NCBI GenBank assembly: GCA_963733035.1
Contig: CAVTBU010000005.1
Coordinates: 1 to 64,000 of the forward strand
Source: Pirellulales bacterium
Lineage (GTDB): Bacteria; Planctomycetota; Planctomycetia; Pirellulales; PALSA-1355
Reading direction: 5' to 3'
DNA length: 64,000 nt
Positions within the stretch are counted from its first letter, which is position 1. Every line of letters begins with the position of its first letter. Shown here piece after piece: positions 20,214-34,628 of the stretch. The notes below the pieces were generated by a model. The model saw nothing but the letters and a program-made list of their open reading frames with translations. It was not told the origin of the DNA and did not search any database. The translations under genes and the position numbers were made by a program.

Positions 20214-20773
20214 CAGTCACTTCTCCTCGTAGTTCTCAATACACGGTGGGGCTCGTGATGCATGTGTACAACGAATCTCCAGTTCGCCCGGTTGGGCTTT
20301 CCTGCGATGGCTGATTTGGGCGCCAGGAGTTTGCTTGTACACTGCTCGGCGGGTTGCTTTCTGGAGCCCTGCGACAGCGGGCGAGGGCTGGCGAAATGCT
20401 GGTCCTCGCCCGTCTTTGTTCGGTCGAAGTTCAGGCTGATTGAAGGAGTGCGGTCCGCCAGTTAGGATTGGTGAATCGAATTGAAATCCGACCTTGGAGA
20501 AATCCTTCCTGCAACGATCGGGGTCCACCAAAGCCCCGCGACAATTTAGAAGCTAGTACCTTCGCCGCCTCTGGAAAACTGCGACATTTCTAAGTGGAAG
20601 TCGGCGTCTGGGCTGGCTCTCCGTATGGGGAGCCACCGGACGTTGTTTCTTCCGCAGCCTGTCGCAGGGCTTCCAGAGGAGCACGCTTCGTGTGGCTCCT
20701 CTTCTTTTTGCGCTGCGTCGAATTCAGCGAGCAAACACCCCAGGTCAGCCCAGCCTGCGACGGGCTATTCCCC

Positions 20774-21865
20774 ATGAGCACACAATGGTTCTATACGGAA
20801 GATGGTAAACAACAGGGACCGATCAGTTCCAATGAACTCAAATCGAGAGCAGCAAACGGCACCATGACTCCAGATGAACTCGTTTGGAAGGAAGGAATGT
20901 CTGAGTGGGTGCCCGCTCGTCGTATCAAAGGGCTATTCACCGCCGCAACTGCTTCTGCGTCGCCACCACCATTGCCTCCGATGATGGACGGCGAGGTTTC
21001 GATGTTGCAAAAGAACGCCGCAACTTCGGAGCCAGAATCTGACGCGACACCAGACTCGACGCCAGCTCCTACTGCCGACCAAGGCGCAGAGCCCCGTCAA
21101 ACTGGCGATTCAAATTCGGCAGACGAGTCCGCTGGTGCAAAGCCCACGTATTCTGAGTCGATTCTTGGCGGCATAGTAGTGGGCATTGTCGTCTCGGTTA
21201 TTTTCTCAGTGTTTCAGCGACTGTTCTATGGAACCTGGATGGATCTGTGGTCGCTGATGACCTCGTCGATCCTCGTGGCGGGGGCAATGATTGCGCTGAT
21301 TGCAAGCCAACAACCCTCTGCCGACGCTCAGCCTGATGAGTCCGCTTCACCAGAGCCGAGTAGACATGAGGTTCTTGTTTACTCTGGCTTTGCGCTGGGA
21401 GCAGTCTTCGGTGTTTTGTATGGACTGTGGTTTGGCGGAATCGTTTCGCAGGCGTTCTACGGCTCATGCCTCGGTGCCTCGGTCGCGGGCATATCGCAAC
21501 GATTCGCTTCAGTGTCCGTCGGGCATCTCACTGGGCTTTTGGTCGTCACATTCGCAGTTCTGCACTTCACAGGATTCACGCAATCGGATGGCAAGAAGTT
21601 AGCGGCATTTCGAGCCGTAGTGAACCAGTACCACAGTTTCCCGAGTGAATATGCAACGGCGGCTGAACGTGAAGCCTTTGCCAAGGAGTTGAACCAGCTC
21701 CAGGAGCGATTTTTTGCTATCGACTTCGACCCGAAAAAGAATCCGAGTGAAGCTAAAGCAATTTGCGACCTCCATCGGTCAGAGATTGAGCACAAATACA
21801 GGGGTTACCAATACAATGTGCTGGAGGAACATGTGCGGGAGATCTATCAGAAATTCACAGAATGA
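20774..21865 (+). CDS. GYF_2 (DUF4339) domain membrane protein
   Basis: MSTQWFYTEDGKQQGPIS...LVWKEGMSEWVPA, Pro-rich linker, several TM segments. Confidence 0.85.
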   Translation: MSTQWFYTEDGKQQGPISSNELKSRAANGTMTPDELVWKEGMSEWVPARRIKGLFTAATASASPPPLPPMMDGEVSMLQKNAATSEPESDATPDSTPAPTADQGAEPRQTGDSNSADESAGAKPTYSESILGGIVVGIVVSVIFSVFQRLFYGTWMDLWSLMTSSILVAGAMIALIASQQPSADAQPDESASPEPSRHEVLVYSGFALGAVFGVLYGLWFGGIVSQAFYGSCLGASVAGISQRFASVSVGHLTGLLVVTFAVLHFTGFTQSDGKKLAAFRAVVNQYHSFPSEYATAAEREAFAKELNQLQERFFAIDFDPKKNPSEAKAICDLHRSEIEHKYRGYQYNVLEEHVREIYQKFTE

Positions 21866-22436
21866 GGTGCCACAAGTCAATATTCGTCCGGCAACAAAAT
21901 GCAGGTCGAACTTCGTTCCACTTCGGTAATGACCCGGATTAGGCGAAAGGGAGCCATCAAAGTCGCATTCAGGAAATGATGACCTGAGCTGTCGAGATGA
22001 CACCGGGCAAAATCGAACGGCAAGGCCATCCACAGACGAGAATCGGGGGCGAAGGTACCCAACTATGCCCGAGGCGGTCCTCCGTGCCTGAAATTGCCTT
22101 TAAATGAGTTTTCTCTGCCGAGCTTTCCCCCAATCTCGCCGATGCGACGTTACAGAAGGGGCTTGCGATTTCGAAGGTCGTTTCGCGCTACCTGGAACGG
22201 TCGCTAACGATAATTACAACATCCTCAACGTCTTCAAATAAGTCGGCAGTCCCCATTCTCGACAAATCTCTTCGTAATGTCAGCTTTGGACATTAAGGCC
22301 GTTCCAGAACGCCCAAATCTGCAGATCCTTCGCAATCTCCGGCGGCCACTACTCGCTGAGCTAATTCGGAGATTCAGATCTTCTTTCGTTACAGTCGGGA
22401 TTTACGTTTAAGGGACAAATCAAAACTTAGACCTGC

Positions 22437-22796
22437 CTACCCGGCAGACAGCTCAACTCGATGTCCGTCTGGATCTGCGACAATCGCTCGCCGACCCCAC
22501 TGGGAGTCTTTGGGAGGAGCCACCGAGGTTCCGCCGGCAGAAAGAAGCGAAGCGTAAGTAGCATCGACTGAAGGGACAGCGAAACCGACTCTTGTCGAAT
22601 TGGTCGGAGCCCCCTGATCCGTTAGAGGGTAGATCTCGAAGACCTGCCCAGCGGATTCGCTCGCCAGATGGATTGGACCGCAACCGTGCGAATGTCGGAC
22701 AAAGCTCAACCCTAGTGCGCAATGGAAGGAGTGCGCACGGTCGAGGTCTCGACTTCGGAGAACAATCAGGTTGCAAGTAATTGTTCCGTCGCTCAT
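22437..22796 (-). CDS. VOC (glyoxalase/bleomycin-resistance) family protein
   Basis: NLIVLRSRDLDRA, RVGFAVPSVD, WGRRAIVADPDGHRVEL. Confidence 0.9.
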   Translation of the reverse strand: MSDGTITCNLIVLRSRDLDRAHSFHCALGLSFVRHSHGCGPIHLASESAGQVFEIYPLTDQGAPTNSTRVGFAVPSVDATYASLLSAGGTSVAPPKDSQWGRRAIVADPDGHRVELSAG

Positions 22797-22811
22797 TGCT
22801 CTTTCCCCTCG

Positions 22812-23369
22812 TTATCGAGCTAACGCTGCTGGATGCGGACTCAATTCGACTGCATCTTCCAGTTGCACCCGACGAATCCTTCCGTCACGCAGTCGGACGA
22901 TGATCTGCAACTCACCTTCAATCGCTCTCACGTAGTCAGCAAGCGTGCTGACCAAGACATCTTTTCGTCGCTCGATTTTCGAAATCTCTCCTTGCTGTCT
23001 TTCAAGAATCGCTGCGATCTCAGCCTGCGACAGGCCATTTTCCTTTCGAAGCTCTTTGAGACTGACAGCCGGCGGCGGAGAAGTGAAGGTCTGCGACAGA
23101 AGCAACGAGACAATTCGGCCGTAAGCGGCCTCTTCATCCTTGTAGACTTCATCGGCACCCTCGCCAAACACTTTCTCCGGCGAGGACGAGACGCCAAATT
23201 CTTTTCCCTGCTGCCACTGCACAATCACCGGATGCTTATTCAGGGCAATGTCGAGAAACCATGCGCCTGAGGCTTTGCGTGGCCGGTCCAGCGCAAGCTG
23301 AGCGTCTGGAAAACGATCCTTGAGAGTTCGCTCTAACTTCTCAATCGGCATCAAGGGTTTGTCAGCCAT
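22812..23369 (-). CDS. XRE-family HTH protein (HigA-like antitoxin candidate) with extra N-terminal domain
   Basis: LKELRKENGLSQAEIAAILERQQGEISKIERRKDVLVSTLADYVRAIEGEL. Confidence 0.8.
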   Translation of the reverse strand: MADKPLMPIEKLERTLKDRFPDAQLALDRPRKASGAWFLDIALNKHPVIVQWQQGKEFGVSSSPEKVFGEGADEVYKDEEAAYGRIVSLLLSQTFTSPPPAVSLKELRKENGLSQAEIAAILERQQGEISKIERRKDVLVSTLADYVRAIEGELQIIVRLRDGRIRRVQLEDAVELSPHPAALAR

Positions 23370-23746
23370 CAGTCACCTTGCTCTTTGTTAATGGAGAGGT
23401 CTGCACCCCGTCCGTCCGAGCCGCATTTCTCGAAAAGTACTTTTCCGTCGACATCCTGAATTTCGATTGCCCCGTTGTCGCGAATAAACGTGTTGTGCGC
23501 CTTATGTCGGTATCGAATGAGGTCGCTTCTTCTTTCGACTTCCCGGGCATTGTCATCTTCAGGTGGATACATTCGGCCATCGGTTTGCCAATGCTCTGGC
23601 TGAAACGGGATACTGGTAAATTCGTTTTCGACCTGGTTCAGGGTGTCACTCAAGAGCTTGAAGGCTTCGTCATGCGAACTCGCTGGTGTCGACTTCTCAA
23701 GGCGGTTCAGAAACTCTTGGAAGCGTTCTGCCTTACTCAGTCCCAT
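23369..23746 (-). CDS. Hypothetical protein, candidate toxin
   Basis: DGRMYPP...RYRHKAHNTFIRDNGAIEI; stop overlaps the start of the HTH gene (TGATG). Confidence 0.6.
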   Translation of the reverse strand: MGLSKAERFQEFLNRLEKSTPASSHDEAFKLLSDTLNQVENEFTSIPFQPEHWQTDGRMYPPEDDNAREVERRSDLIRYRHKAHNTFIRDNGAIEIQDVDGKVLFEKCGSDGRGADLSINKEQGD

Positions 23747-23805
23747 CAGTTGCTAAAGCAGCTCCTCGACATCTTCGGCATCGAGAAACTGCTCCCTTTC
23801 GATAA

Positions 23806-23834
23806 ATATTAGCTTAAGGGAATTATTCTGTCAA
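23806..23834 (-). promoter_or_regulatory. Sigma70-type promoter of the toxin-HTH-VOC operon
   Basis: TTGACA, 17 bp spacer, TAATAT on the minus strand, 60 bp upstream of the ATG at 23746. Confidence 0.7.
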
Positions 23835-24260
23835 CGGAATACTTTGCCACACCAAAGCACGGTTGACCCCCAGTTCGACGCAAGGCATTGAAACAAATAG
23901 GGTTACTCAAAGACGATCCGAGAACGGAAGTTACCACTGCTTACCAGAAACCCCGACTCAGGTAAGACGCTTCTCCTCTTCGGTAGAGTGTCGCAATATC
24001 AGAATGGTACGAATAGGTCGATCCGCTCTGAGTCAGAACACCGTGCTTGACTCAGTGCCGTGGTTCGCCTTGGAGAAAATCCGAAGGCGAGGCAAATGCG
24101 GTTGATCTGACGCCAGTTTCTTGGTTCCAGCAATGGCGGAATCCAAATCTGCTCGTCGTTGTAAGTCCCTGTCGCTAAACTGCTTTTGCCGGTTTTCCGT
24201 TCAGGTTTCGGTATCGTAGTTTTCGCCCCCAGAGGGAATTCGCAAAAAACTTCCATTTCG

Positions 24261-24292
24261 ATTTCCGGTTCGCAAATGTCACCGGTTGAAGA
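24261..24292 (+). promoter_or_regulatory. Bipartite motif copy 1 (putative alternative-sigma promoter)
   Basis: ATTTCCGGTT-N8-TCACCGGTTGAAGA, 6 bp before ATG 24299; matches 29210-29241. Confidence 0.65.
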
Positions 24293-24298
24293 TCTTGT

Positions 24299-25115
24299 AT
24301 GGACCAACTCCCCCCACCTACAGCTGCCGATTCGCCAAGTGCTGTAAGTCTGCCCGCGCTGACTCAGACGTACAAACGGAGTGGAGAGCCACTTCTGCGC
24401 TTCGCAGATGTGGAGTCAGAGATTCTGGCAGTGTTGGCGACTGATCCGGGAATTTGGTCTCCGGCTGCGTTGAAGAGTGAGACTCTGATTTACCTCATTC
24501 GATGGCTTTGGCGCATGCAACGATCAGAAAAACATCGGGAGAATGATTGAGTGCTTGGGAAAACGCATCGCTCAGATTGCGAGAGATTTCGCGTCGGGTT
24601 TCCCGCCCAACATCGCCGAAGACCTTGCGATTGAGATTGCCGAAGAGGTCAACCTGCTTATCTTCGCAAGCACGCCGAGTCGGCAAAGCGAGATTCTGGA
24701 AGTCGTCTTTCGCAGCGCGATTGAGCGGCGTGCGGTCAACAAACGCTCGAAAATCAAACAACGGTTGAAGCACGAAGTCAGCGAGTCGAGAATTCAAGCC
24801 AAGGATACTGGTGAGGACACCAACGGAATCATTGCCTCCCACTCGGACGGTAAACCAGATCCTGGCGAGATAGCACTGCTCGCTGAAGCACAACACCTTC
24901 GCCCCGAACGGATTCGAAAAGCACTTGCCGCTATCTCGAATCCACTTCATCGCGAGGCGGTCATTTTACATCATCTTCAAGGGTGGCAAATCTCAAGTAC
25001 AGCAAGCGCAATACCAACTCTCAGCACGCACTTTAAGAAGTCGTCGCGACAGATCCAGAATTGGCTCAAAGCGGCGATGAAGCAAATGCGTACTGCACTG
25101 GGAGAATCAATATGA
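24299..25115 (+). CDS. Sigma70/ECF-like factor (frameshift near 24515-24545)
   Basis: Region-4-like C-terminus RIRKALAAISNPLHREAVILHHLQGW...TLSTHFKKSSRQIQNWLKAAMKQMRTAL; region-2-like AEDLAIEIAEEV. Confidence 0.65.
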
Positions 25116-25735
25116 ACAGGAAGGACCAAGTGACAATCGAAGACCTCCTGGATGAAATCATGCTCCAGGAACCGGAACCCCAATACGACGCACTACTTCG
25201 TTGGTGCGAGCTCTACCCGGAGTATCGGGATCAGCTCACGAACTTCTTTGCGACGTGGGCGGAACAGAAAGAGCACGGCGAACGTCCTGAGATCGATGAA
25301 GATCGAGTCGCGAGCAGAATGGTCAGCCATGCTTTGAACTTGATTCACCACCAAAAAGCTCCGACTGCCGAAATGCGAGCCACGACCGAGTCTCGACTCC
25401 ACAAGATGATCCGAGCATCGGGATGTTCCGAACAGACCTTGATGGAGCAATGCAAACTCGATGACACGCTGCTGGCAAAGCTCGATCGCCACTTGATTGT
25501 TTTTGCGAGCATTCCTCAGCGATGTATTCAGGGAATTGCTGCGGCTCTGCAATTTGCCGTCGAGGATGTTTCGCGAGCATTGATGGGAGATCCAATTCCA
25601 TTGTCGAGCTACAAGGCGAAGGGAAAGCCGGTACTGCGACAGGAGCCGTTCCTCGACGCAGTCAAAACGTCAGAGCTTTCGACTGCGGTAAAGGAAGAAT
25701 GGAGACGAATCGTCACCAGCGAGACTTCTCACTAG
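25112..25735 (+). CDS. Hypothetical protein: helical anti-sigma-like N-terminus plus degenerate XRE-like HTH
   Basis: ATGA overlap with the sigma gene, GGAG RBS; LLRWCELYPEYRDQL and LHKMIRASGCSEQTLMEQCKLDDTLLAKLDR...IQGIAAALQFAVEDV. Confidence 0.6.
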   Translation: MNRKDQVTIEDLLDEIMLQEPEPQYDALLRWCELYPEYRDQLTNFFATWAEQKEHGERPEIDEDRVASRMVSHALNLIHHQKAPTAEMRATTESRLHKMIRASGCSEQTLMEQCKLDDTLLAKLDRHLIVFASIPQRCIQGIAAALQFAVEDVSRALMGDPIPLSSYKAKGKPVLRQEPFLDAVKTSELSTAVKEEWRRIVTSETSH

Positions 25736-25745
25736 GAACACCAAG

Positions 25746-28700
25746 ATGAGTGCGTGGAAGGAAGTTCGACGTTTGCGCAACAACGCCATAGCGAGTACGA
25801 TAATGGCGCGGACGCACTCATTCCGGCAAGTGCCCTTCTGGCTGCCGCACAAGCGGTAACAGGAATTAGGTTCATCAGTCGGCCTGCAGATGACACCCTT
25901 CTGGATGGAGCCGAGGCTGCATACGATCGAGAACGTCAGAGAATCTACTACTCGAATGCAACTCCGCTGCCGCTTGCGCATTTCCACATTGCGCATGAGT
26001 TTGCACACCACTGGCTCTATGAAGCCGCCGCGGCCTGCGCCAATGCGGATTTGGACCTGCTGGTTCCTTCAGAACCGGAGATGTCCTCCGTCGGAGATCA
26101 GGACTCGTATAGTCCCAAAGAACGAGCTGAAGCCCAGGCAAATCTATTCGCTAGAGAGTTTCTCCTCCCTCGAAACAAGCTTCGACAACGTTGTGCCAGC
26201 GATATTTCCCAAGCCGATGCCATCGCTAGCGAAATCGGCGTCCCGGTCGATCTTGTAATGCAGCAATTGGCCGACGCTCTGTTACTGCCAGCCGAAAGTA
26301 ATTTGCAATCTGAACCGCGCCCTGAAACCGAGCCAGACGCAAGCCAGCTAGAGGCAATCACCGCTACGGATGAGCCACGACAGGTCAGAGCAGGTCCTGG
26401 AACCGGAAAGACAAGAACTTTAGTCGGACGAATCGCCCACTTAATCAACAGAGGTGAAGAACCATCTTCGATTTTGGCACTCACCTACTCCAATCTGTCT
26501 GCTCAAGATCTGGCGAGTCGGATTAGTGCAGAAGTTGGAGAAAAAGCCACTGCGATTTGGTCCGGAACGTTCCATGCTTTTGGACTGGAACTTCTGCGAA
26601 AGCATGGGCACTTACTGGGCTTTGAATCTGAACCAAAGCTTCGCGATCGCACCGATTCATTGATGCTGCTGGAAGACCTGCTTCCATGTCTGGAACTGAG
26701 TCACTATCTCGATCTGCACGAGCCGATGCTGAAACTGCGCTCGATACTCGGGGCTATCGGTCGAGCAAAAGATGAACTCGCCTCACCTGACGACTACATG
26801 AATGCTGCCAGGGCGATGGCTGAGGAAGCTACCGACCAAGATTCACAGAAGGCGGCAGATCGAGCGATAGAAGTCGCCCGAATCTACGCAATCTACGAAG
26901 CAGCGTTGAGGGAGCGAGGCTTTGTCGACTTCGGCGATCTCGTCGCCTTGCCAATCAAACTGCTCCGTGATAACCCCGAGGTGCGAGAAGCAGTCCGCAA
27001 TGACAAGCGTCACGTTCTTGTCGATGAATATCAAGACATGAATCGCGCCAGCGCCTTGCTGCTCAAGGAACTTTGCACCCCAGGACGCGGACCGTGGGTT
27101 GTCGGAGATGTGCGACAATCGATCTATCGCTTCCGAGGTGCTTCACCGCTCAATATGGCTCGGTTCTCGCATGAGTTTCCTGGAGCACAGACAACAGACC
27201 TTTCTGTCAACTACCGCTCAGGCGGACGAATCGTGAAACTGTTCGAATCGTTTGGCCGAGGGATGGCGGCTGGTGCGAACGCTTCTACAGGAGCGCTGAC
27301 TGCAAATCGCGGAGAGAATCGCGGTACCGTTCAATACGACGTGGCGACGACTCGTGAGGCCGAAGCGCACGGCATCGCTAAGGAAATCCTGGCAAGAGTC
27401 GAGGCCGGTTCAAAATTCGCCGACCAAGCCATTCTCGCTCGATCGCATACAATCCTTTCGCGCCTTGCAAAGCAACTTGAAGGTGCTGGGGTGCCCTGTC
27501 TGTACTTCGGAGACTTTTTCGAGCGCCCCGAGATACGCGACCTGCTCTCACTCTTGTCTCTCGTCGCTGAGCCCAAAGGAGTTGGGCTTTTCCGTGTCGC
27601 GCAGCTGCCGATGTATGACGTGCCTGCTGAAGACATAGGCCTGTTGTTCCAAAGACGACGGGAGCAGCAAGAGACGATGCTCAAGACGCTTCGAGACTTT
27701 GCAAGCGTGCCGGGTTTCAGCCAACGCGGACGTGAAGGCTTAGCCAGGCTTGTCGCCGATGTTCAGGATGCAACATGGCCTCTGTCGCCGCATCGTTTTC
27801 TGATGTCGTATCTATTGAGGCGAAGCGGATATCTGCAACCCTTCATGGCAGATGACACCGTTCCAGGCCAGCAGCGGCGGCTCGCCATCTACCAACTGCT
27901 ACAGTTCGCCTTCGCGTTTAAACCGTCCAAGAATGACGATCCGAAGCAAGCTTTTCTGGCACACGTTCGTCGACTCGAAATTCTTGACGAAGAGAAGCAG
28001 CTACGGCAGTTGCCCGCCGCGGTCAGCGACATCGATGCTGTTCGGTTGATGACAGTGCATTCGAGCAAGGGGTTAGAGTTTCCGATCGTTCATATCCTTG
28101 CCCTGACCGGCACTCAGTTTCCGGCCCCCAACAGATACGAGCCGTGTCCGCTTCCACCGGGACTGCTTAGTTCCGACGTTTTGATGACCAAAGATGCAGA
28201 AGAGGACAGCCTGTTCTTCGTTGGAGCGTCCCGCGCCAGAGATGGTTTGCACCTTTCGCGAGCGCAGACAAATGGCATGCGCAATACGAGGCCCTCGCGG
28301 TTTCTCGAAACGGTGTCTTCGCATTTGCCACACCGCATAGACGTATCGCCTCGGTGGACCGGCGACGGGATTTCCGAGCCGACTTTTCCCCTGCTCGTTG
28401 GGCGTATGGCGAACGACCAGTGGACAGCAGGGGAAATCGAGACCTATATCGATTGCTCTCGCCGGTTCTACTACGATCACGCCTTAGAACTTGGCGGAGC
28501 AGACGCCGCCTCGCCGTTTCTCAAGTTCCAATCAGCACTGCATTCGAGCATGGCTTGGTTACGCGAAACCGCATCGGCAGACCAACGACGGGATGGCCTA
28601 ATCGCCCGCTTTGAGGAGGACTGGGAAAAATTCGGCCCAGGCGATCATCCTTTCGAGCCGCTCTACCGCCGCATGGCGAAGGCCATGATCGAGGCGGCGC

Positions 28701-29119
28701 ACGGGGTGATGAGCGGTGAGAACTTGCCCGCTGATCGGCAAGTTGTCGCGCCCGGAAGTGGCGCGGTCATCAGTTGTCGCGCAGATCAGATTGAACGCAC
28801 GCCGAATGGAATCGTCATCCGTAGGTTGAAGGCCGGCCGTCTGGCCAAAACCGAAAATGACAAACCGCGATACATTCTTCTGCAGGTTGCCATTCGCACC
28901 GACCATCCCAACGAAGAAGTCCACTTCGAGCATGTATCTCTGCTCGATGGTGAGTGCCGAACCGCAACCGACAAATCGAAAAAAGCGGGCGACAAGTTGA
29001 AGGCTTGCGAAAGCGCCATTGCAGCAGCCGGTAACGGAAGCTTCGACCCGAGCCCAAGTCAACGCTGCCCGTCCTGCCCGTACTTCTTTATCTGCCCGGC
29101 CCACGGCCCTACTCGCTAG
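25746..29119 (+). CDS. ImmA/IrrE metallopeptidase / UvrD helicase / PD-(D/E)XK-like Fe-S domain fusion (probable frameshift just after ATG 25746)
   Basis: FHIAHEFAH...EAQANLFAREFLLP; AGPGTGKT, VDEYQD, VGDVRQSIYRFRGA, NYRS, TVHSSKGLEF, VGASRAR; YIDCSRRFYY...CPSCPYFFIC. Confidence 0.9.
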
Positions 29120-29209
29120 GCAGCAAGTTTCTGTCAGGACAGATTCGTCGCTTGGCGGCTGTGCTGCGCTCACGAGTCTCTCCCCGCATCAAAAATTTGT
29201 GCGGCTGAC

Positions 29210-29241
29210 ATTTCCGGTTGGGCTCTCTCGCCGGTTGAAGA
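29210..29241 (+). promoter_or_regulatory. Bipartite motif copy 2, upstream of bilA
   Basis: ATTTCCGGTT-N8-TCGCCGGTTGAAGA, 59 bp before ATG 29301. Confidence 0.65.
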
Positions 29242-29300
29242 AAGTGTGAGGCCAATGATGGCCGACAAGCTTCAACCAGTAACGAGAGAGGAAAATCCCA

Positions 29301-29795
29301 ATGTCGCAAATTCAATTATTCCTGCAGTTCGAAGGCAGTGGCAGAGTGGAGCTCATCCAACTCGACAGCGAAGCCTTGGTCGCTGACGTGTTGGAAGCCG
29401 CCGTGAAACTCGGATTCCCCGACAATCATCGTGCAGATGCGCATGTCTTCGGTCCCGATGACGAATCCCCGCTCAAGCCCACTGTTCCGTTGAGCAAACA
29501 AGGAATTTGCGACAAGCAGCGTGTGCACATTCACCGCTGCCGCAAAGTCGAAGTCACAATGCACTTCAACGAGCTGACTGAGGTCATGCAGTTCCCGCCT
29601 GCGAACACGGTCGACCACGTGAAGAAACGCTTCGTCCATGCGATTGGTATGTCGCCCGTCGATGCTACCGAGCACGTGCTTCAAATCTGCGGCTCCAACG
29701 ACCGCCCGGAGGCGGACGCGCAAATCGGCACCCTGGTGTGCGGGTGCTGCTCGCTCTGTTTCAACCTGGTCCCCATCAAGCGAGTCGAGGGCTAG
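29301..29795 (+). CDS. bilA: Tandem ubiquitin-like protein (BilA-like)
   Basis: Two beta-grasp-like units, C-terminal ...IKRVEG ending in Gly; first gene of a Ubl-E2-JAB-E1 operon; GAGAGG RBS. Confidence 0.8.
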
Positions 29796-29814
29796 TCACT
29801 TGGATACAAGCACC

Positions 29815-30288
29815 ATGCGTCCCGATGAACGTGCCTTCCGCGACCACGTCGCGGCGGGTGCGTTCCAACTCGGGGCTCACCTCAATCGTTGGAAGCTGGG
29901 TTCAATCGCCTGGCCTATCGTGCAGATTGCCGTCGCAGCGGCAGCTCGCGATGGGGCTCCAAATGAATACTGGTTTCGCTTCGATTGCAGTGGCTATTCG
30001 CAAGAGGCTCCCACGGCTCGGCCGTGGGATCACGAAGCTGACCAGCCGCTTCCATTCAATCGATGGCCCGATGGTGCGTCGCGGATTCCAGCGGTCTTCA
30101 GACCCGGTTGGAAAGACGGAACTTGCCTCTACCTGCCCTGCGATCGAATCGCTGCGGTGGGGCACGAAAACTGGCGAAATGAATACCCCGCACTTCAATG
30201 GTCGCCAAGCCGAGGTGTGGTCCTCTACTTGGACGAACTTCATTCCTTACTCAATTCAAGCGACTACAAAGGAGCGCGAGGTGGCTAA
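29815..30288 (+). CDS. bilB: E2-like conjugating enzyme (BilB-like)
   Basis: [19 protein letters not shown] and CLYLPCDR candidate catalytic Cys; operon position. Confidence 0.8.
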
Positions 30289-30766
30289 ACCGCTGATTCG
30301 ATTCCAGCGCAGTCTTTGGCTTCGCTGCATGACGGAGCTTCAAATCAGGAGCCACGGTCGGCACGAATCCGGGTGCTTCATTCTCGGAAGCGTCAAAGGT
30401 GATAAACGACAATCGCGTCGTTGCGTGTTCTACGATGAGCTTGACCCGCACGCATATTCGAGCGGCGTCTGCATCTTGCAAAGTGACTCGTTCACCCGCC
30501 TTTGGGAAATCTGCCGCGCAGAAAAGTTGACCGTCATCGCCGATATCCACACACACCCTGCCGGGGCGTTTCAAAGCGAAGCGGACCGAACAAACCCCAT
30601 GATTGCCCGCGCCGGTCATCTTGCGATCATCGTTCCGAACTATGCGTTTGGATGGATGTGGCGTCACCGGCTCGGTGTTTTTCAGTACGAAGGTGACCAT
30701 CGTTGGACCAACCTCAGCGGTTGGCAGGCCCGCTCCGTCCTCAAAGTCAGTTGGAGTTTTATATGA
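30281..30766 (+). CDS. bilC: JAB/MPN metallopeptidase (BilC-like deubiquitinase)
   Basis: HESGCFILG...IHTHP...QSEAD JAMM motif; GTG start with GGAG RBS overlapping the E2 stop. Confidence 0.88.
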
Positions 30767-32154
30767 TTCCAGAAGCAATGCCTTTCACCAGTGTTGACAG
30801 CGGTATGCCGAGCGCCGATACGCTCAATCGCGTTGTGAAAATCGCGATTGACAGTGGCGAAGTCACAACCGTTGCCGCCGGGTATGACCTGCTCCGCACG
30901 TATCGTGTTGGCGTTCGTGTTGGCCCAGAGGTTCAGAATTCTACTGCTCATCAGGCTGCCTTGCTGACGATCGTCAATATCGCGCGCCGTGCCCTACTTG
31001 GTGGCGTCTACATCGAAGGGAGTCTCGACACTCCGCTGCTGGTTCCGGTTCCTGGCCAACAAACACTTGCTGGAGCCGTGGCCGCCCTCGGCGGGCAGGC
31101 GATTAACGAAATTGCAGGGACTATGCCCACGCTGATTCTGGGCAATGTGACTAGCAATTCGAACGAGCACGAGGTTGGCCTGAATGTCATCTTCAGCGAT
31201 TGGCGCGGAGGCGTTGTGCCACAAGCCGATTCACACTCGCCATCCGCACAGCAGGCAATCACACCAGCAGCAGTTCTTGCTGCGGCGATTGCCGTCTCCG
31301 AGGTCTTTCAAAACTTGCGTGGCAACCCAATGGCCGGTCGGCGGCCGGTCGGCCTTTCGCTCTGGATCCCGGAGTCGATTGATTGGGAAAATGCCCCTGC
31401 CGGTCCGCTCGACATCGTATTCCCGTCGAACCTTTGGCTGATTGGGCTCGGCCATCTTGGGCAAGCCTATCTGTGGGTGCTCGGCTTGTTACCCTATGCA
31501 GACCCTTCGAAGGTGATGCTCTATTTGCAGGATTTCGATCGGCTTGCCGCGTCCAACGACAGCACCTCATTGCTCACCAGCGGCGAGCTTGTTGGTCGCC
31601 TCAAAACCAGGGCGATGGCGGAGTGGGCAGAAGCACGAGGTTTCAACGCAAGAGTCATCGAGCGCCCATTCCCCGGCGGAATGAAGGTGACCGAGAAGGA
31701 ACCTCGATTGGCACTTGGAGGTGTCGATAATCCGCAAGCACGGGCCGCATATGAAGATGCAGAATTTGACTGGATTGTTGAATCCGGATTGGGGGCAGGT
31801 CCGACGGAATACCTTGCCCTGCGCCTTCACACATTCCCTGCAACTACCACGGCACGCCGGAAATGGAGTGATGTTGATGTACATCGTGCCCCAGGGCCGA
31901 ATGTAGCTGCTTACCAGGATTTGTCGGCCAAGGGCATGGATGACTGCGGATTGGTTCAACTCGCCACGCGGTCTGTGGGGGCACCGTTTGTCGGCACGGT
32001 GGCCGCGTCGCTTGTCATCGCTGAAGTCCTGCGTTTTCTAAATGGAGGTCCTAGGACAGAGGTGATCGACATGACTCTTCGCGACCCAGGCAGTCGGTCA
32101 GTGGTGTCGGCAACGACTCAGTTAAATGGCTTCAATCCAGGTTTCACCTACTAA
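30763..32154 (+). CDS. bilD: E1-like activating enzyme (BilD-like)
   Basis: IGLGHLG nucleotide loop, QDFD, GGVDNPQAR, candidate catalytic DDCGLV, VGAPFVG; long N-terminal inactive-adenylation-like region; ATGA overlap with JAB. Confidence 0.85.
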   Translation: MIPEAMPFTSVDSGMPSADTLNRVVKIAIDSGEVTTVAAGYDLLRTYRVGVRVGPEVQNSTAHQAALLTIVNIARRALLGGVYIEGSLDTPLLVPVPGQQTLAGAVAALGGQAINEIAGTMPTLILGNVTSNSNEHEVGLNVIFSDWRGGVVPQADSHSPSAQQAITPAAVLAAAIAVSEVFQNLRGNPMAGRRPVGLSLWIPESIDWENAPAGPLDIVFPSNLWLIGLGHLGQAYLWVLGLLPYADPSKVMLYLQDFDRLAASNDSTSLLTSGELVGRLKTRAMAEWAEARGFNARVIERPFPGGMKVTEKEPRLALGGVDNPQARAAYEDAEFDWIVESGLGAGPTEYLALRLHTFPATTTARRKWSDVDVHRAPGPNVAAYQDLSAKGMDDCGLVQLATRSVGAPFVGTVAASLVIAEVLRFLNGGPRTEVIDMTLRDPGSRSVVSATTQLNGFNPGFTY

Positions 32155-32399
32155 CTTTCGACCCGAATGACCGGACGTTGCACTTCGGGCCGGGCTGCTC
32201 CGGGCTCCGCTTATGCTCGGTCCGACTGCCGCAAGCCACAGCCGGACTGCTTCGCACCCTGCAATCCTTAATGCGGCGGGCGATGCCGAGAATTGAAGGC
32301 TGGTTCGCGATTCTAATCCACCCCGCTCCGCGCTCGCTGCCATTTCGAGCCATTTGAGACGGCCTGTTTGCAGCGCATCCATGAGGAAGCCGCTGTCAA

Positions 32400-32575
32400 G
32401 TCGATAGCGAGAAGACCACGGGATCTCCAAGCATCCATCCGGCATCTCCGCTCTCGGGCGGACCGCCACCTTTCTATTTTCGGCCACTCCCATTCATTTG
32501 CGCGGCGTCGCAAAGTCGCCATGCGCTGCACCGGGATGCGGCATCGGATCCCGCTATCTCCTTGAGTGTTTCCCC
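32400..32575 (-). ncRNA. Putative bridge/seek RNA region of IS110 element 1 (limits approximate)
   Basis: Holds a 10-nt complement of the right target flank (32521-32530) and a match to the left flank (32494-32501) around a hairpin. Confidence 0.6.
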
Positions 32576-33598
32576 TCAAGCCACAGACACTTTTTCCTGC
32601 CACACCTGGCCCTGGCGGAGCATCGCATGCATCACGCGGGCCAGGTAGTGGGCCGTGGCCACCAACGCGATCTTCTTTCGGTCATCGGCGCCTTGATGAA
32701 TGCGCTCAAAGAAGTGGCGGATCGTCGGGAATCGCCGCACTCCTTGCCAAGCTGCCTCAGTCAACAGCTTTCGCACCGTCGCTGGTCCTTCGCGTGTAAT
32801 GTGCCCCAGCCGGTTCATCGAGCCCGATTGGTCCTGAGCAGGAACCAGACCAAAGTAACAGCCGATCGACTTGGTCGTGCGGAATCGGCTGGGGTCATCG
32901 AGATAAGCCGCCATCGCCTCCGCGGTGCGTGCGCCGACACCGGGGATCGTTACCAACAACGCGGAAGCTCCGCTCGCCTGCGAATGGCGTTCAAGCTGCT
33001 TCTCCACACGACGGAGCTGTTCGCTGAAGACGTGCAGCTCCTCTACCAGCAGGTCTCGGCGCATAGCATAGAGAGGGCTGGGCAGTTCGAGCCGTTCCAG
33101 CCAGTATAAGCCTTGCTTGGTCCACAGACCGAACTCCGAGGGGACCGCAATCCCCAGGCTGCGCAACAACCCTCTCAAAGAATTCTTTGCTCGTGTTCGT
33201 TTGTCGATGACCTGCGTCCGGTACTCGATCAGCTGACGCCAGGCTCGCACATCCCCTGACGGAACGTAGACGCCGGGAACCTCGTTCAAAAATAGTAGCT
33301 TCGCCAGCTTCTCGACGTCCACGCGATCGTTCTTGCGCTTGGAGCGGAAGATCAGTCGCAATTGCCCGGGATGGGGCACCACCACGCGCTGGCACACCGG
33401 TTTGAGCAACTCGTAAATGCGTCCGTAACCGCAGGAGGCCTCGTAGCATATGCTGACGGGACCATCCAACACTTTAAGTTGGTCGGCAATGCCCGACCAA
33501 GGACCTCGCACCCTCACCTGTTTGATCCTGCGACCGTTCTTGTCAAGTACACACATCGAAGTGTGCCCGAGGTGAACATCCAAACCGACGAAATACAT
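32576..33598 (-). CDS. IS110-family transposase/recombinase
   Basis: VGLDVH, YEAS, KNDRVD, IPGVG, GLVP..QSG, GHITREG. Confidence 0.95.
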   Translation of the reverse strand: MYFVGLDVHLGHTSMCVLDKNGRRIKQVRVRGPWSGIADQLKVLDGPVSICYEASCGYGRIYELLKPVCQRVVVPHPGQLRLIFRSKRKNDRVDVEKLAKLLFLNEVPGVYVPSGDVRAWRQLIEYRTQVIDKRTRAKNSLRGLLRSLGIAVPSEFGLWTKQGLYWLERLELPSPLYAMRRDLLVEELHVFSEQLRRVEKQLERHSQASGASALLVTIPGVGARTAEAMAAYLDDPSRFRTTKSIGCYFGLVPAQDQSGSMNRLGHITREGPATVRKLLTEAAWQGVRRFPTIRHFFERIHQGADDRKKIALVATAHYLARVMHAMLRQGQVWQEKVSVA

Positions 33599-33743
33599 CG
33601 TGAAGCCTCCTTCGTACGAGGAACGACACGGACCAAGTAGCCATCGTACCGCTCAGGCTTCCTACATAGAGTCATTTGCAGCGCGGCACATATCGCAATC
33701 GGCGTAACCGCAAGCGGCGCAATCGCTTGACAAAAAATCAGGT

Positions 33744-33765
33744 GCAGGTTCAAATCCTGTCGCCC
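33744..33765 (+). other. tRNA 3'-end remnant (T-arm), probable att core
   Basis: GCAGGTTCAAATCCTGTCGCCC, 17 bp from the integrase stop; no rest of a tRNA upstream. Confidence 0.65.
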
Positions 33766-33782
33766 TTCTTCACCTCCCACTC

Positions 33783-34628
33783 TCAATACCCCACCCTCTC
33801 AACCCCTTCCGCCAACTGATCTCCACTCCGTTGCGAATACCGGCTTGTGGTCTGCAGATTCTCGTGCCCCAAGATCTGAGCAAGGGACACGAGATCGTTC
33901 CCATTGTCTGCCAAGAACTGTTTGGCAAACGTGTGTCTGAACAAGTGCGGGTGAAGGCGAACGCCGATCAAAGTCGAGTATTTTTGGCAGAGTGCCCTTA
34001 CGCCATCGTCAGTGATAGGACCTCGCTCGCCAATAAAGACTTTGCTAGAAACCGGAGGGCGAGTCTCCAAGTATTCCTGCAGCGCCCGACGAGCCGGCAA
34101 GGGTAACGGCACAGTCCGCTGCTTGCCGCCCTTGCCATGCCGAAAAACTACTGACCCTGCTCGCTCTCCGATCATCAAGTCTCTCAGTTCAAGATTCACA
34201 AGATCAGACACCCGGCAACCCGTGTAGAGTAGCAATGCAAAGATTGCTCCCGCCCGAACGTCCTGCCGCAGTTCGATCTCGCGCAGCAACCGCCGAACGT
34301 CTGCACGTTCAAGTCCTTTGGGAGCCAATTGCTGCCGCCGCAGTTCCTTCACACCTTTGGCTGGATTGGCTTCCAATCGCCCTTCAACCACCAACCACTC
34401 GAAGAACCTTCGGATCATCACCAGCGCACGATTGATGCTGGCGATCGCCTGCTTTTGTTCCCGGTGCAGATGATTTCGAAAATCCACGACGTCTCGTAGC
34501 GTCGTTCGTTTCACCGTGAAAGGTTCTTGGTTCGCCTCGACGAACCAACTGGCGAACTTCCGGAGGTCGTTGCGAATGGCGCGGCAGGTATGCTCGGAGA
34601 AGTCATGGGCGTCCAGGTAAGCCGCCAC
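33783..34628 (-). CDS. XerC/D-like tyrosine integrase (true start probably near 34715 across a frameshift)
   Basis: YTGCRVSD, GKGGKQRTVP, HPHLFRHT, LGHENLQTTSRY; all catalytic residues present. Confidence 0.93.
   Translation of the reverse strand: MAAYLDAHDFSEHTCRAIRNDLRKFASWFVEANQEPFTVKRTTLRDVVDFRNHLHREQKQAIASINRALVMIRRFFEWLVVEGRLEANPAKGVKELRRQQLAPKGLERADVRRLLREIELRQDVRAGAIFALLLYTGCRVSDLVNLELRDLMIGERAGSVVFRHGKGGKQRTVPLPLPARRALQEYLETRPPVSSKVFIGERGPITDDGVRALCQKYSTLIGVRLHPHLFRHTFAKQFLADNGNDLVSLAQILGHENLQTTSRYSQRSGDQLAEGVERVGY

Follow-up and report, generated by a model that had tools for sequence, protein, structure and literature searches.

A bipartite DNA motif of 32 bp occurs twice in a 64,000-nt stretch of a Pirellulales genome (assembly GCA_963733035.1, contig CAVTBU010000005.1, positions 1–64,000, forward strand; this whole stretch is called the window below), once upstream of a gene for a sigma-like protein and once upstream of bilA. 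Both sites, designated P1 and P2, respectively, belong to a cassette of seven genes, which encode the sigma-like protein, the XRE-like protein p224, a fusion of an M78 peptidase with a UvrD-type helicase and a nuclease, and the four proteins of the bilABCD operon. Judging from sequence comparison, P1 and P2 are putative promoters read by the cassette's own sigma-70-family factor, a two-domain protein resembling the extracytoplasmic function (ECF) sigma factors, and we assign this interpretation a probability of about 0.8. If it is correct, the two promoters offer direct evidence, at the level of sequence, that a Bil cassette of wide distribution is equipped with a sigma factor and promoters of its own.

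Two copies of one motif in the window

Copy 1 (ATTTCCGGTTcgcaaatgTCACCGGTTGAAGA) occupies positions 24261–24292 upstream of the sigma-like gene, and copy 2 (ATTTCCGGTTgggctctcTCGCCGGTTGAAGA) positions 29210–29241 upstream of bilA, inside a gap of 181 bp; like all features described below, they lie on the forward strand unless stated otherwise. The original prediction, made from the sequence of the window, had placed both copies at these positions, and its description was borne out: the outer blocks are equal at 23 of 24 positions, the 8-bp middle keeps its length but not its sequence, an A-tract stands above each copy (24244–24249 and 29191–29195), and 6 nt separate the end of copy 1 from the ATG at 24299. 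This ATG is the earliest possible start in its frame, because a TGA at 24287–24289 lies in the same frame. The two-copy observation is confirmed.

A scan of the window with up to 3 mismatches gave 2 matches, and such a pair of matches appeared in none of 100 shuffled sequences. A genome-wide scan, proposed with the original prediction, found just these two copies in the 6,645,485 bases (6.65 Mb) of the host genome at up to 5 mismatches in 24 positions. When the same genome was searched with a two-box matrix whose training set was 25 sites of other loci (the window and the related loci L001 and L021 were excluded), the copies ranked first and second of 13,290,070 positions, scoring 28.9 and 26.6 bits, and the next best position scored 21.0. 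A matrix built from alphaproteobacterial sites only ranked copy 1 sixth and left copy 2 outside the top 8. The presence of just two copies in this genome might suggest that the repeat is accidental, or that it stems from a recent local duplication, and has no function. Such a reading is refuted by the shuffles and by the conservation of the motif in relatives, where it is kept at the same two places even if the cassette proteins share just 30–50% identity; moreover, the flanks of the two copies are unrelated. Its probability is negligible.

Conservation of the motif and its reading as a promoter

Relatives were collected with a profile of the sigma-like protein, which yielded 16 loci from species-representative genomes and 9 from metagenomes. 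The full colinear cassette was found in 13 of them (L001–L006, L008–L010, L012 and L014–L016; L008 and L009 are identical across the cassette), representing Planctomycetota, one metagenome-assembled genome of Acidobacteriota, and many Alphaproteobacteria. Eight shorter contigs show, in the part that they cover, the same gene order. The cassette of L019 is interrupted by an IS1595 transposase, the contig of L024 is too short, and L025 is only weakly related; a search of the L025 neighbourhood for other effectors behind the same sigma found no families. The cassette is also carried by two conjugative rhizobial plasmids (L026 and L027), in which the sigma-like protein and p224 are annotated as hypothetical. 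Motif discovery at the orthologous genes showed that 12 of the 13 complete cassettes, as well as the window and both plasmid cassettes, have the motif upstream of the sigma gene and again upstream of bilA.

Alignment of the DNA upstream of the sigma genes and bilA brought 30 distinct sites from 18 loci into one register, 18 of them before sigma genes and 12 before bilA. The information profile of these sites has three peaks, namely an A/T tract, ATTTCCGgT at positions 1–9, and TTGAa at positions 26–30, and the 13 gap positions between the two boxes are unconserved (0.1–0.4 bits). The first peak (positions -17 to -11, with 0.8–1.3 bits at -16 to -11) corresponds to the A-tract above P1, which is UP-element-like; at P2 the tract was read from the sequence, and in the table of 30 sites the tract of bilA sites is less pronounced than that of sigma sites. 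The second peak (1.1–2.1 bits at positions 1–9, with 0.5 bits at position 8) corresponds to a -35-like box, ATTTCCGGTT, located at 24261–24270 in P1 and at 29210–29219 in P2. The third (0.9–2.1 bits) corresponds to a -10-like box, GGTTGAAG, at 24284–24291 in P1 (core TTGA at 24286–24289), 7 nt upstream of the ATG at 24299, and at 29233–29240 in P2. Across the phyla, the A-tract, ATTTCCG(G/A)T, the length of the otherwise unconserved 13-bp gap, TTGA, and a sigma ATG located 5–9 nt past the TTGA box remain constant. In the same register, the second box reads CCGGTTGAAGA in the window's clade, TCTTGA(A/G)C in most Alphaproteobacteria, and G(G/C/T)TTGTA(A/G) on the two rhizobial plasmids. The block anatomy given in the original prediction thus stands in part: the first block ATTTCCGgT and TTGAa are conserved across phyla, whereas TC(A/G)CCGG of the second block is confined to the window's clade, and the 8-bp spacer has to be replaced by a functional gap of about 17 nt between the hexamers. 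A promoter reading of the minus strand, through CCGGAAAT, was also considered and ruled out, with nothing conserved on that side beyond the A-tract.

The sigma ATG falls at motif positions 35–40 in all 20 loci that have a P1 site, and since residues 18–37 of the sigma N-terminus are conserved, translation must begin at that ATG. The 20 P1 sites show what is expected of an autoregulated ECF-type promoter, a bipartite motif before the sigma's own gene in which the spacing is kept and the spacer varies. In the predicted geometry, the A-tract would lie at about -53 to -45, followed by the -35 box ATTTCCGG, about 17 free nt, the -10 box TTGAAG, and the transcription start about 7 nt later. The boxes TTTCCG and TTGA differ from the GGAAC/CGT type that is usual for ECF sigma factors. 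At P1, the predicted start is on or beside the A of the sigma ATG, hence the P1 mRNA, which would encode the sigma, p224, and the protease-helicase-nuclease, is expected to be leaderless or nearly so; P2 would provide bilABCD with a leader of about 60 nt having its own ribosome-binding site. The claim of the original prediction that the motif constitutes the -35 and -10 elements of the encoded sigma is supported by the comparison as a whole: the asymmetric boxes, the fixed spacing, the free gap, the A-tract, and the sigma fold described below.

The motif is closely tied to the cassette. In leave-clade-out scans of 13–64 kb on both strands, for which the matrix was built without the tested locus and its close kin, P1 and P2 ranked first and second in 10 of 13 loci, and the sites of the plasmid L027, which like those of L026 were outside the training set, ranked first and third. 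In five alphaproteobacterial genomes of 3.9–5.1 Mb, all 8 matches to the clade pattern were cassette sites, and the reversed control gave none. These results bear on the notion that P1 and P2 are ordinary promoters of a host sigma factor (housekeeping, heat-shock, or other) and not of the cassette protein. The notion draws on likeness, as the sigma-70 -35 hexamer begins with bases similar to TTGA, and the sigma-32 -35 box is similar to CTTGAA. However, a scan for sigma-70-like promoters found none on the forward strand at P1 or P2, no TATAAT-like hexamer lies 16–18 nt past TTGAAG at either site, in six genomes from three phyla the motif occurs nowhere outside the cassette, and it varies along with the cassette clade. 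A host sigma factor is therefore a very unlikely reader.

The two sites of a cassette also change in concert. When the -10 box of P1 is compared with that of P2, 6.6 of 8 positions match inside a single locus, 6.7 within a clade, and 4.4 between clades, and rare -35 variants are found at both sites of one locus (AGTTCC in L002 and L003, TTTTCC in L026). The 29 bases above P1 and P2 show no such concerted effect. For two sites separated by 5 kb to change together, a shared reader that changes with them is needed, which points to a factor encoded by the cassette.

A cassette-encoded reader might also be a repressor. In that case the motif would mainly serve as an operator for p224, which is always present, or for XRE185, a further XRE-type protein encoded in the neighbourhood; the M78 peptidase would remove the repressor as in CapH/CapP, and the sigma-like protein would have another role. 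An M78 domain with the HExxH motif is encoded alongside, CCGGTT occurs twice in the motif of the window's clade, and the gaps of two sites have slightly more positions in common if both sites belong to one locus (5.1 of 13) than if they belong to different loci (3.5–3.9). Yet the motif is devoid of dyad symmetry, and the second CCGG is missing from the alphaproteobacterial (12) and rhizobial (4) sites, where only TTGA stays in register. XRE185 and its partner p125 adjoin the cassette in only 5 related loci (divergently in L001 and L021, upstream on the same strand in L011, L014, and L015), and the motif is kept in cassettes that lack XRE185. From -30 to -1, the flanks of P1 and P2 are no more alike within a locus than otherwise (8.7 versus 8.7–8.9 of 29); this and the lack of a palindrome argue against a classical p224 operator. 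Nor does an operator explain the A-tract and the fixed 5–9 nt to the sigma ATG. The original prediction had offered an XRE operator, based on the CCGGTT direct repeat, as its alternative, and this was not supported, the repeat being clade-specific and XRE185 being missing from most of the motif-bearing cassettes. We consider an operator function in place of the promoter unlikely; a repressor overlapping the promoter boxes could coexist with it.

A third copy of the motif was found in the Novosphingobium locus L016, where CTTTCCGATC-N13-TCTTGGAG lies 6 nt before a GTG. It precedes a candidate defence pair, PDC-M01A (a Septu-like ATPase) and PDC-M01B, located directly after bilD (L016:18421-20736). 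The same geometry before an unrelated defence operon is as expected of a portable promoter. While bilABCD is present in every complete cassette found among the 25 profile loci and the plasmids, a pairing of the same sigma with effectors other than Bil is possible.

The sigma-like protein and the weight of contrary evidence

In the relatives, the sigma-like gene is a single open reading frame of 263–272 amino acids. An AlphaFold2 model of the protein, computed with 28 sequences, had a predicted local distance difference test score (pLDDT) of 82, and the Foldseek matches listed at ranks 1–50 were all sigma-70-family factors or complexes holding one (best E-value 1.5e-3). The predicted structure contains both a sigma-2 domain fold, responsible for core binding and -10 recognition, and a sigma-4 domain with a helix-turn-helix (HTH), responsible for -35 recognition. 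The product is thus predicted to fold as sigma-2 plus sigma-4, in the manner of a two-domain ECF-like (group 4) factor. Its last sigma-4 helix is invariant among the members, as is the -35 box. The model TIGR02937 (sigma70-ECF) matches 10 of 28 members (best E 3e-07), and some public records call the relatives sigma factors. The family is large, comprising 168 clusters at E ≤1e-30 and 651 at E ≤1e-10.

Several results weigh against the promoter reading. In the window itself, the sigma-like gene (24299–25115) is split into two open reading frames, 24299–24550 (83 amino acids) and 24543–25115 (190 amino acids), by a frameshift: the alignment places one extra base at 24514/24515, TGGCGCATGCAAC compared with TGGCGT-TGCAAC in L001. 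Membership of the sigma family is weak at the sequence level, as Sigma70_r4_2 matches only 5 of 15 members (best E 0.004), no Pfam family matches the two sigma pieces of the window, and a profile search of the PDB with the sigma-like protein gave no matches; the best NCBIfam match of the two pieces (E 0.004) is far below the cut-off. In the leave-clade-out scans, the sites of L003 and L004 ranked first and third, neither site of L005 was in the top five, with no clear P2 in that locus, and the sites of the plasmid L026 had ranks 5 and 3. The P1 of L001 has a degenerate -10 box, GGTCGTAG, and was placed in the site alignment by hand. A regular-expression search for P1 gave no match in L020, L022, and L023; by eye, L022 and L023 retain ATTTCC, with a different second box and a longer leader. 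Besides, the loci share a common descent, and the alphaproteobacterial group is tight, so its internal conservation weighs less than the number of its loci would imply. Finally, in 7 loci (L002, L003, L004, L017, L018, L026, and L027) a Shine-Dalgarno-like GGAG, GAGG, or GGGAGG lies between the -10 box and the ATG; such bases would be useless on a leaderless mRNA and could mean that transcription starts further upstream.

If the start were indeed upstream of the second box, TTGA/GGAG would be part of the RNA, acting as the ribosome-binding site at P1 and as the 5' arm of a hairpin at P2, and ATTTCCG would be a -10-type or activator element. This would account for the purine runs on or after the box in the 7 loci, which are well spaced from the ATG, and for the pairing, in both clades, of the P2 box or the next bases with a downstream complement. 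On the other hand, alphaproteobacterial P1 sites (TCTTGAGCCAGACATG and similar) have no Shine-Dalgarno sequence, and the P2 box, situated about 60 nt before a bilA that has a Shine-Dalgarno sequence of its own, still keeps its sequence and its register to ATTTCCG. Furthermore, ATTTCCG taken as a -10 element puts the A-tract at about -35 to -25; with ATTTCCG as a -35 box, the tract falls between -53 and -45, where UP elements lie. An upstream start seems to us quite unlikely, and the promoter reading with a start at or near the sigma ATG is retained.

As for the frameshift, the extra base has no counterpart in contigs of relatives from any of 4 public runs (four studies). Being missing from all relatives examined, it is private to this assembly, and it is either a true mutation or an assembly error. 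If the base is real, this strain no longer has a sigma for its Bil regulon, the Bil operon is predicted to be uninducible, and the switch proposed below may be dead in this genome. In the related locus L021 (L021:2262-3660), the sigma gene breaks off after codon 73, at the very codon of the extra base of the window, and the sequence past the break is the 3' end of a gyrB/parE-like gene on the opposite strand. It may be explained by a deletion, by a hot spot of rearrangement, or by a contig that is chimeric.

Putative partner proteins, leader and neighbouring genes

The gene for p224 (25112–25735) begins with an ATG that overlaps the sigma stop codon as ATGA, and the same is true for 20 of 21 related loci. 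So strict a coupling favours p224 as the one-to-one partner of the sigma. The model of p224 consists of an N-terminal helical domain, an XRE-type HTH (approximately residues 95–160), a conserved linker predicted to be disordered, and C-terminal helices. The HTH matches CapH, DdrO, ImmR, and SinR structurally, and CapH, DdrO, and ImmR, all three known to be cleaved by M78 peptidases, were among the best matches in a search independent of Foldseek. The next gene (25754–29119) encodes the fusion protein of 1121 amino acids, in which Pfam and NCBIfam identify an M78 peptidase (Peptidase_M78, E 3.5e-11), a UvrD/PcrA-like helicase, and a PD-(D/E)XK nuclease with a four-Cys cluster. Among 15 orthologues, HExxH is present in 14, and Walker A and the Cys cluster in all. 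The sole case of a replaced catalytic glutamate is in L014 (L014:11574-14798), where the M78 motif reads HKFGH instead of HEFGH.

The bilABCD operon (29301–32154) comprises bilA (29301–29795), bilB (about 29812–30288), bilC (about 30278–30766), and bilD (within 30703–32154). PADLOC identified the products as BilA (2.6e-46), BilB (9.8e-61), BilC (1.5e-59), and BilD (1.6e-161), and the order of a ubiquitin-like protein, an E2, a JAB deubiquitinase, and an E1 from bilA to bilD is that of a Bil operon. An inverted repeat spans 29233–29277 in the bilA leader: GGTTGAAG (29233–29240) pairs with CTTCAACC (29270–29277), enclosing an inner GGCC/GGCC stem at 29250–29263. RNAalifold analysis of 5 leaders from the clade of the window predicted 11 base pairs, of which 3 show compensatory changes. 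An analogous hairpin is predicted in 7 alphaproteobacterial bilA leaders (L006, L008, L010, L012, and L014–L016), in which CCTCTTG pairs with CAAGAGG, the ribosome-binding site; 1 pair has compensatory changes there, so that such changes are few in both clades. The 5' arm of the hairpin in both clades is the -10 box or the bases just past it, upstream of the expected P2 start. A scan found no terminator between the helicase gene and P2, and no Rfam match was found in 22000–33000. Our hypothesis, derived from the folding models, is that the hairpin would form only in RNA reading through from P1 and would keep bilA untranslated on it.

On the minus strand upstream of the cassette lies an accessory pair (22812–23746) divergent from it, XRE185 (22812–23369) and p125 (23369–23746), which appears to have its own sigma-70-like promoter at 23834–23806 according to the promoter scan. 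The pair gave matches to HTH_3/HTH_31; p125 itself has no family match. No conserved small gene was found in 23747–24298 in any frame, and only nucleotide-level likeness to L001 and L021 was detected there. Directly after bilD, an IS110-family transposase and a tyrosine recombinase are encoded on the minus strand (32576–34628). The G+C content of the whole window is 56%, compared with 60% of the genome. Together with the two conjugative plasmids, the transposase and recombinase and the G+C content make the cassette look horizontally mobile. Further upstream of the island, the window encodes a protein of 423 amino acids with a GYF_2 domain (20594–21865; E 4e-19).

A proposed switch and its relation to known systems

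How anti-phage systems stay silent and are then switched on is an open question, and the composition of the cassette suggests one answer. By analogy with CapP/CapH, IrrE/DdrO, and ImmA/ImmR, we infer that p224, translationally coupled to the sigma, may keep it inactive, as an anti-sigma factor or as a repressor, until the helicase-nuclease meets phage DNA ends or damaged DNA and the M78 domain cuts p224. The freed sigma would then fire P1 and P2 together, and the P1 operon would feed back on itself through its own sigma. In its most complete form, the cassette would be a self-contained, horizontally mobile sigma switch for immunity. Loading of the helicase-nuclease on phage DNA ends or broken DNA would activate its own M78 domain, which would cleave p224, in this scheme a soluble anti-sigma factor and not a repressor. 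The released private sigma would drive its leaderless own operon and bilABCD from the two promoter copies, the bilA leader hairpin would hold P1 read-through RNA untranslated, and other defence operons would be wired in by acquiring the promoter, as PDC-M01 in L016. For all of these steps to hold together is a tentative proposal, with odds that we put at about one in three. Should the cassette indeed use its own sigma and promoters, it would not depend on the promoters of its hosts, whether in Planctomycetota, Acidobacteriota, or Alphaproteobacteria or on conjugative plasmids. The motif with the four-part protein set forms a short defined element, which suggests an orthogonal sigma/promoter pair for synthetic biology.

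The closest parallel on the promoter side is DdvS/DdvA of Myxococcus xanthus, in which a membrane-bound anti-sigma partners an ECF sigma; according to the available text, an island of CBASS (anti-phage signalling based on cyclic oligonucleotides) and CRISPR-Cas (clustered regularly interspaced short palindromic repeats with Cas proteins) genes is driven there from the DdvS-dependent promoters P1–P4 (PMC11506125). Both systems have a two-domain sigma (sigma-2 and sigma-4) encoded beside defence genes, the same bipartite promoter before the own operon and the defence operon or operons, and a partner gene directly after the sigma gene. Unlike DdvA, the partner in the cassette is soluble and has an XRE HTH instead of being a membrane ZAS-type anti-sigma, and the putative input is a cytoplasmic M78-helicase-nuclease and not a periplasmic TPR-CHAT domain. 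The cassette further differs in its effector, Bil, in the leaderless geometry of P1, and in a sigma whose N-terminus is extended by a conserved stretch of about 55 residues and which fails the Pfam sigma models.

On the side of the peptidase, CapH and CapP are described as regulators of CBASS, Bil, and other immune operons (10.1101/2022.04.27.489752; PMC13228613, as far as their available text goes), and the accessible part of the Chambers preprint reports them at 25 of 162 Bil-type operons and, with a single exception, in divergent orientation, with no mention in that part of a helicase or a sigma factor (10.1101/2023.09.26.559546). The cassette shares with CapH/CapP an XRE-type HTH protein, structurally matched to CapH, and an M78 peptidase with HExxH upstream of a Bil operon. 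CapH and CapP are two small stand-alone divergent genes sharing the defence promoter region, with CapH as the repressor and no sigma, an arrangement that the cassette does not have: its genes are co-directional with bilABCD, the sigma gene leads, the peptidase is the N-terminal domain of a helicase-nuclease, and the DNA motif is asymmetric and promoter-like instead of palindromic. A similar relation holds for the M78 peptidases IrrE of Deinococcus and ImmA of Bacillus ICEBs1, which cleave the XRE repressors DdrO and ImmR after DNA damage (described in part in PMC12828697). In these pairs, too, an M78 peptidase works with an XRE protein whose HTH p224 resembles, and the flexible segment conserved after the p224 HTH lies where such repressors are cut, which makes it a putative cleavage site. 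Unlike the cassette, they have neither a sigma factor nor a helicase-nuclease fusion, and their targets are palindromic operators.

The families of immune-operon regulators described in the available part of one account are CapW/BrxR, CapH/CapP, and CapK/CapS (PMC13373217). CapW/BrxR and CapK with CapS resemble the cassette in being dedicated regulators beside a defence operon, some Bil operons included, but the former are WYL-domain repressors and the latter a kinase with a STAS-wHTH (winged HTH) repressor, and none is a sigma factor. The accessible text of the Hor preprint makes no mention of a promoter, a helicase, or regulation, and no paper describing the cassette was found in the literature searched; other journals and supplementary tables may differ. 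Within that literature, the cassette joins known kinds of elements, autoregulated ECF-type promoters and M78/XRE switches, in a combination that we did not find described. If the complete switch proposed above is true, it would add a fourth type to the dedicated regulators of immune operons, which now comprise CapW, CapH/CapP, and CapK/CapS, and this type would be the first to rely on a private sigma factor with a DNA-processing sensor.

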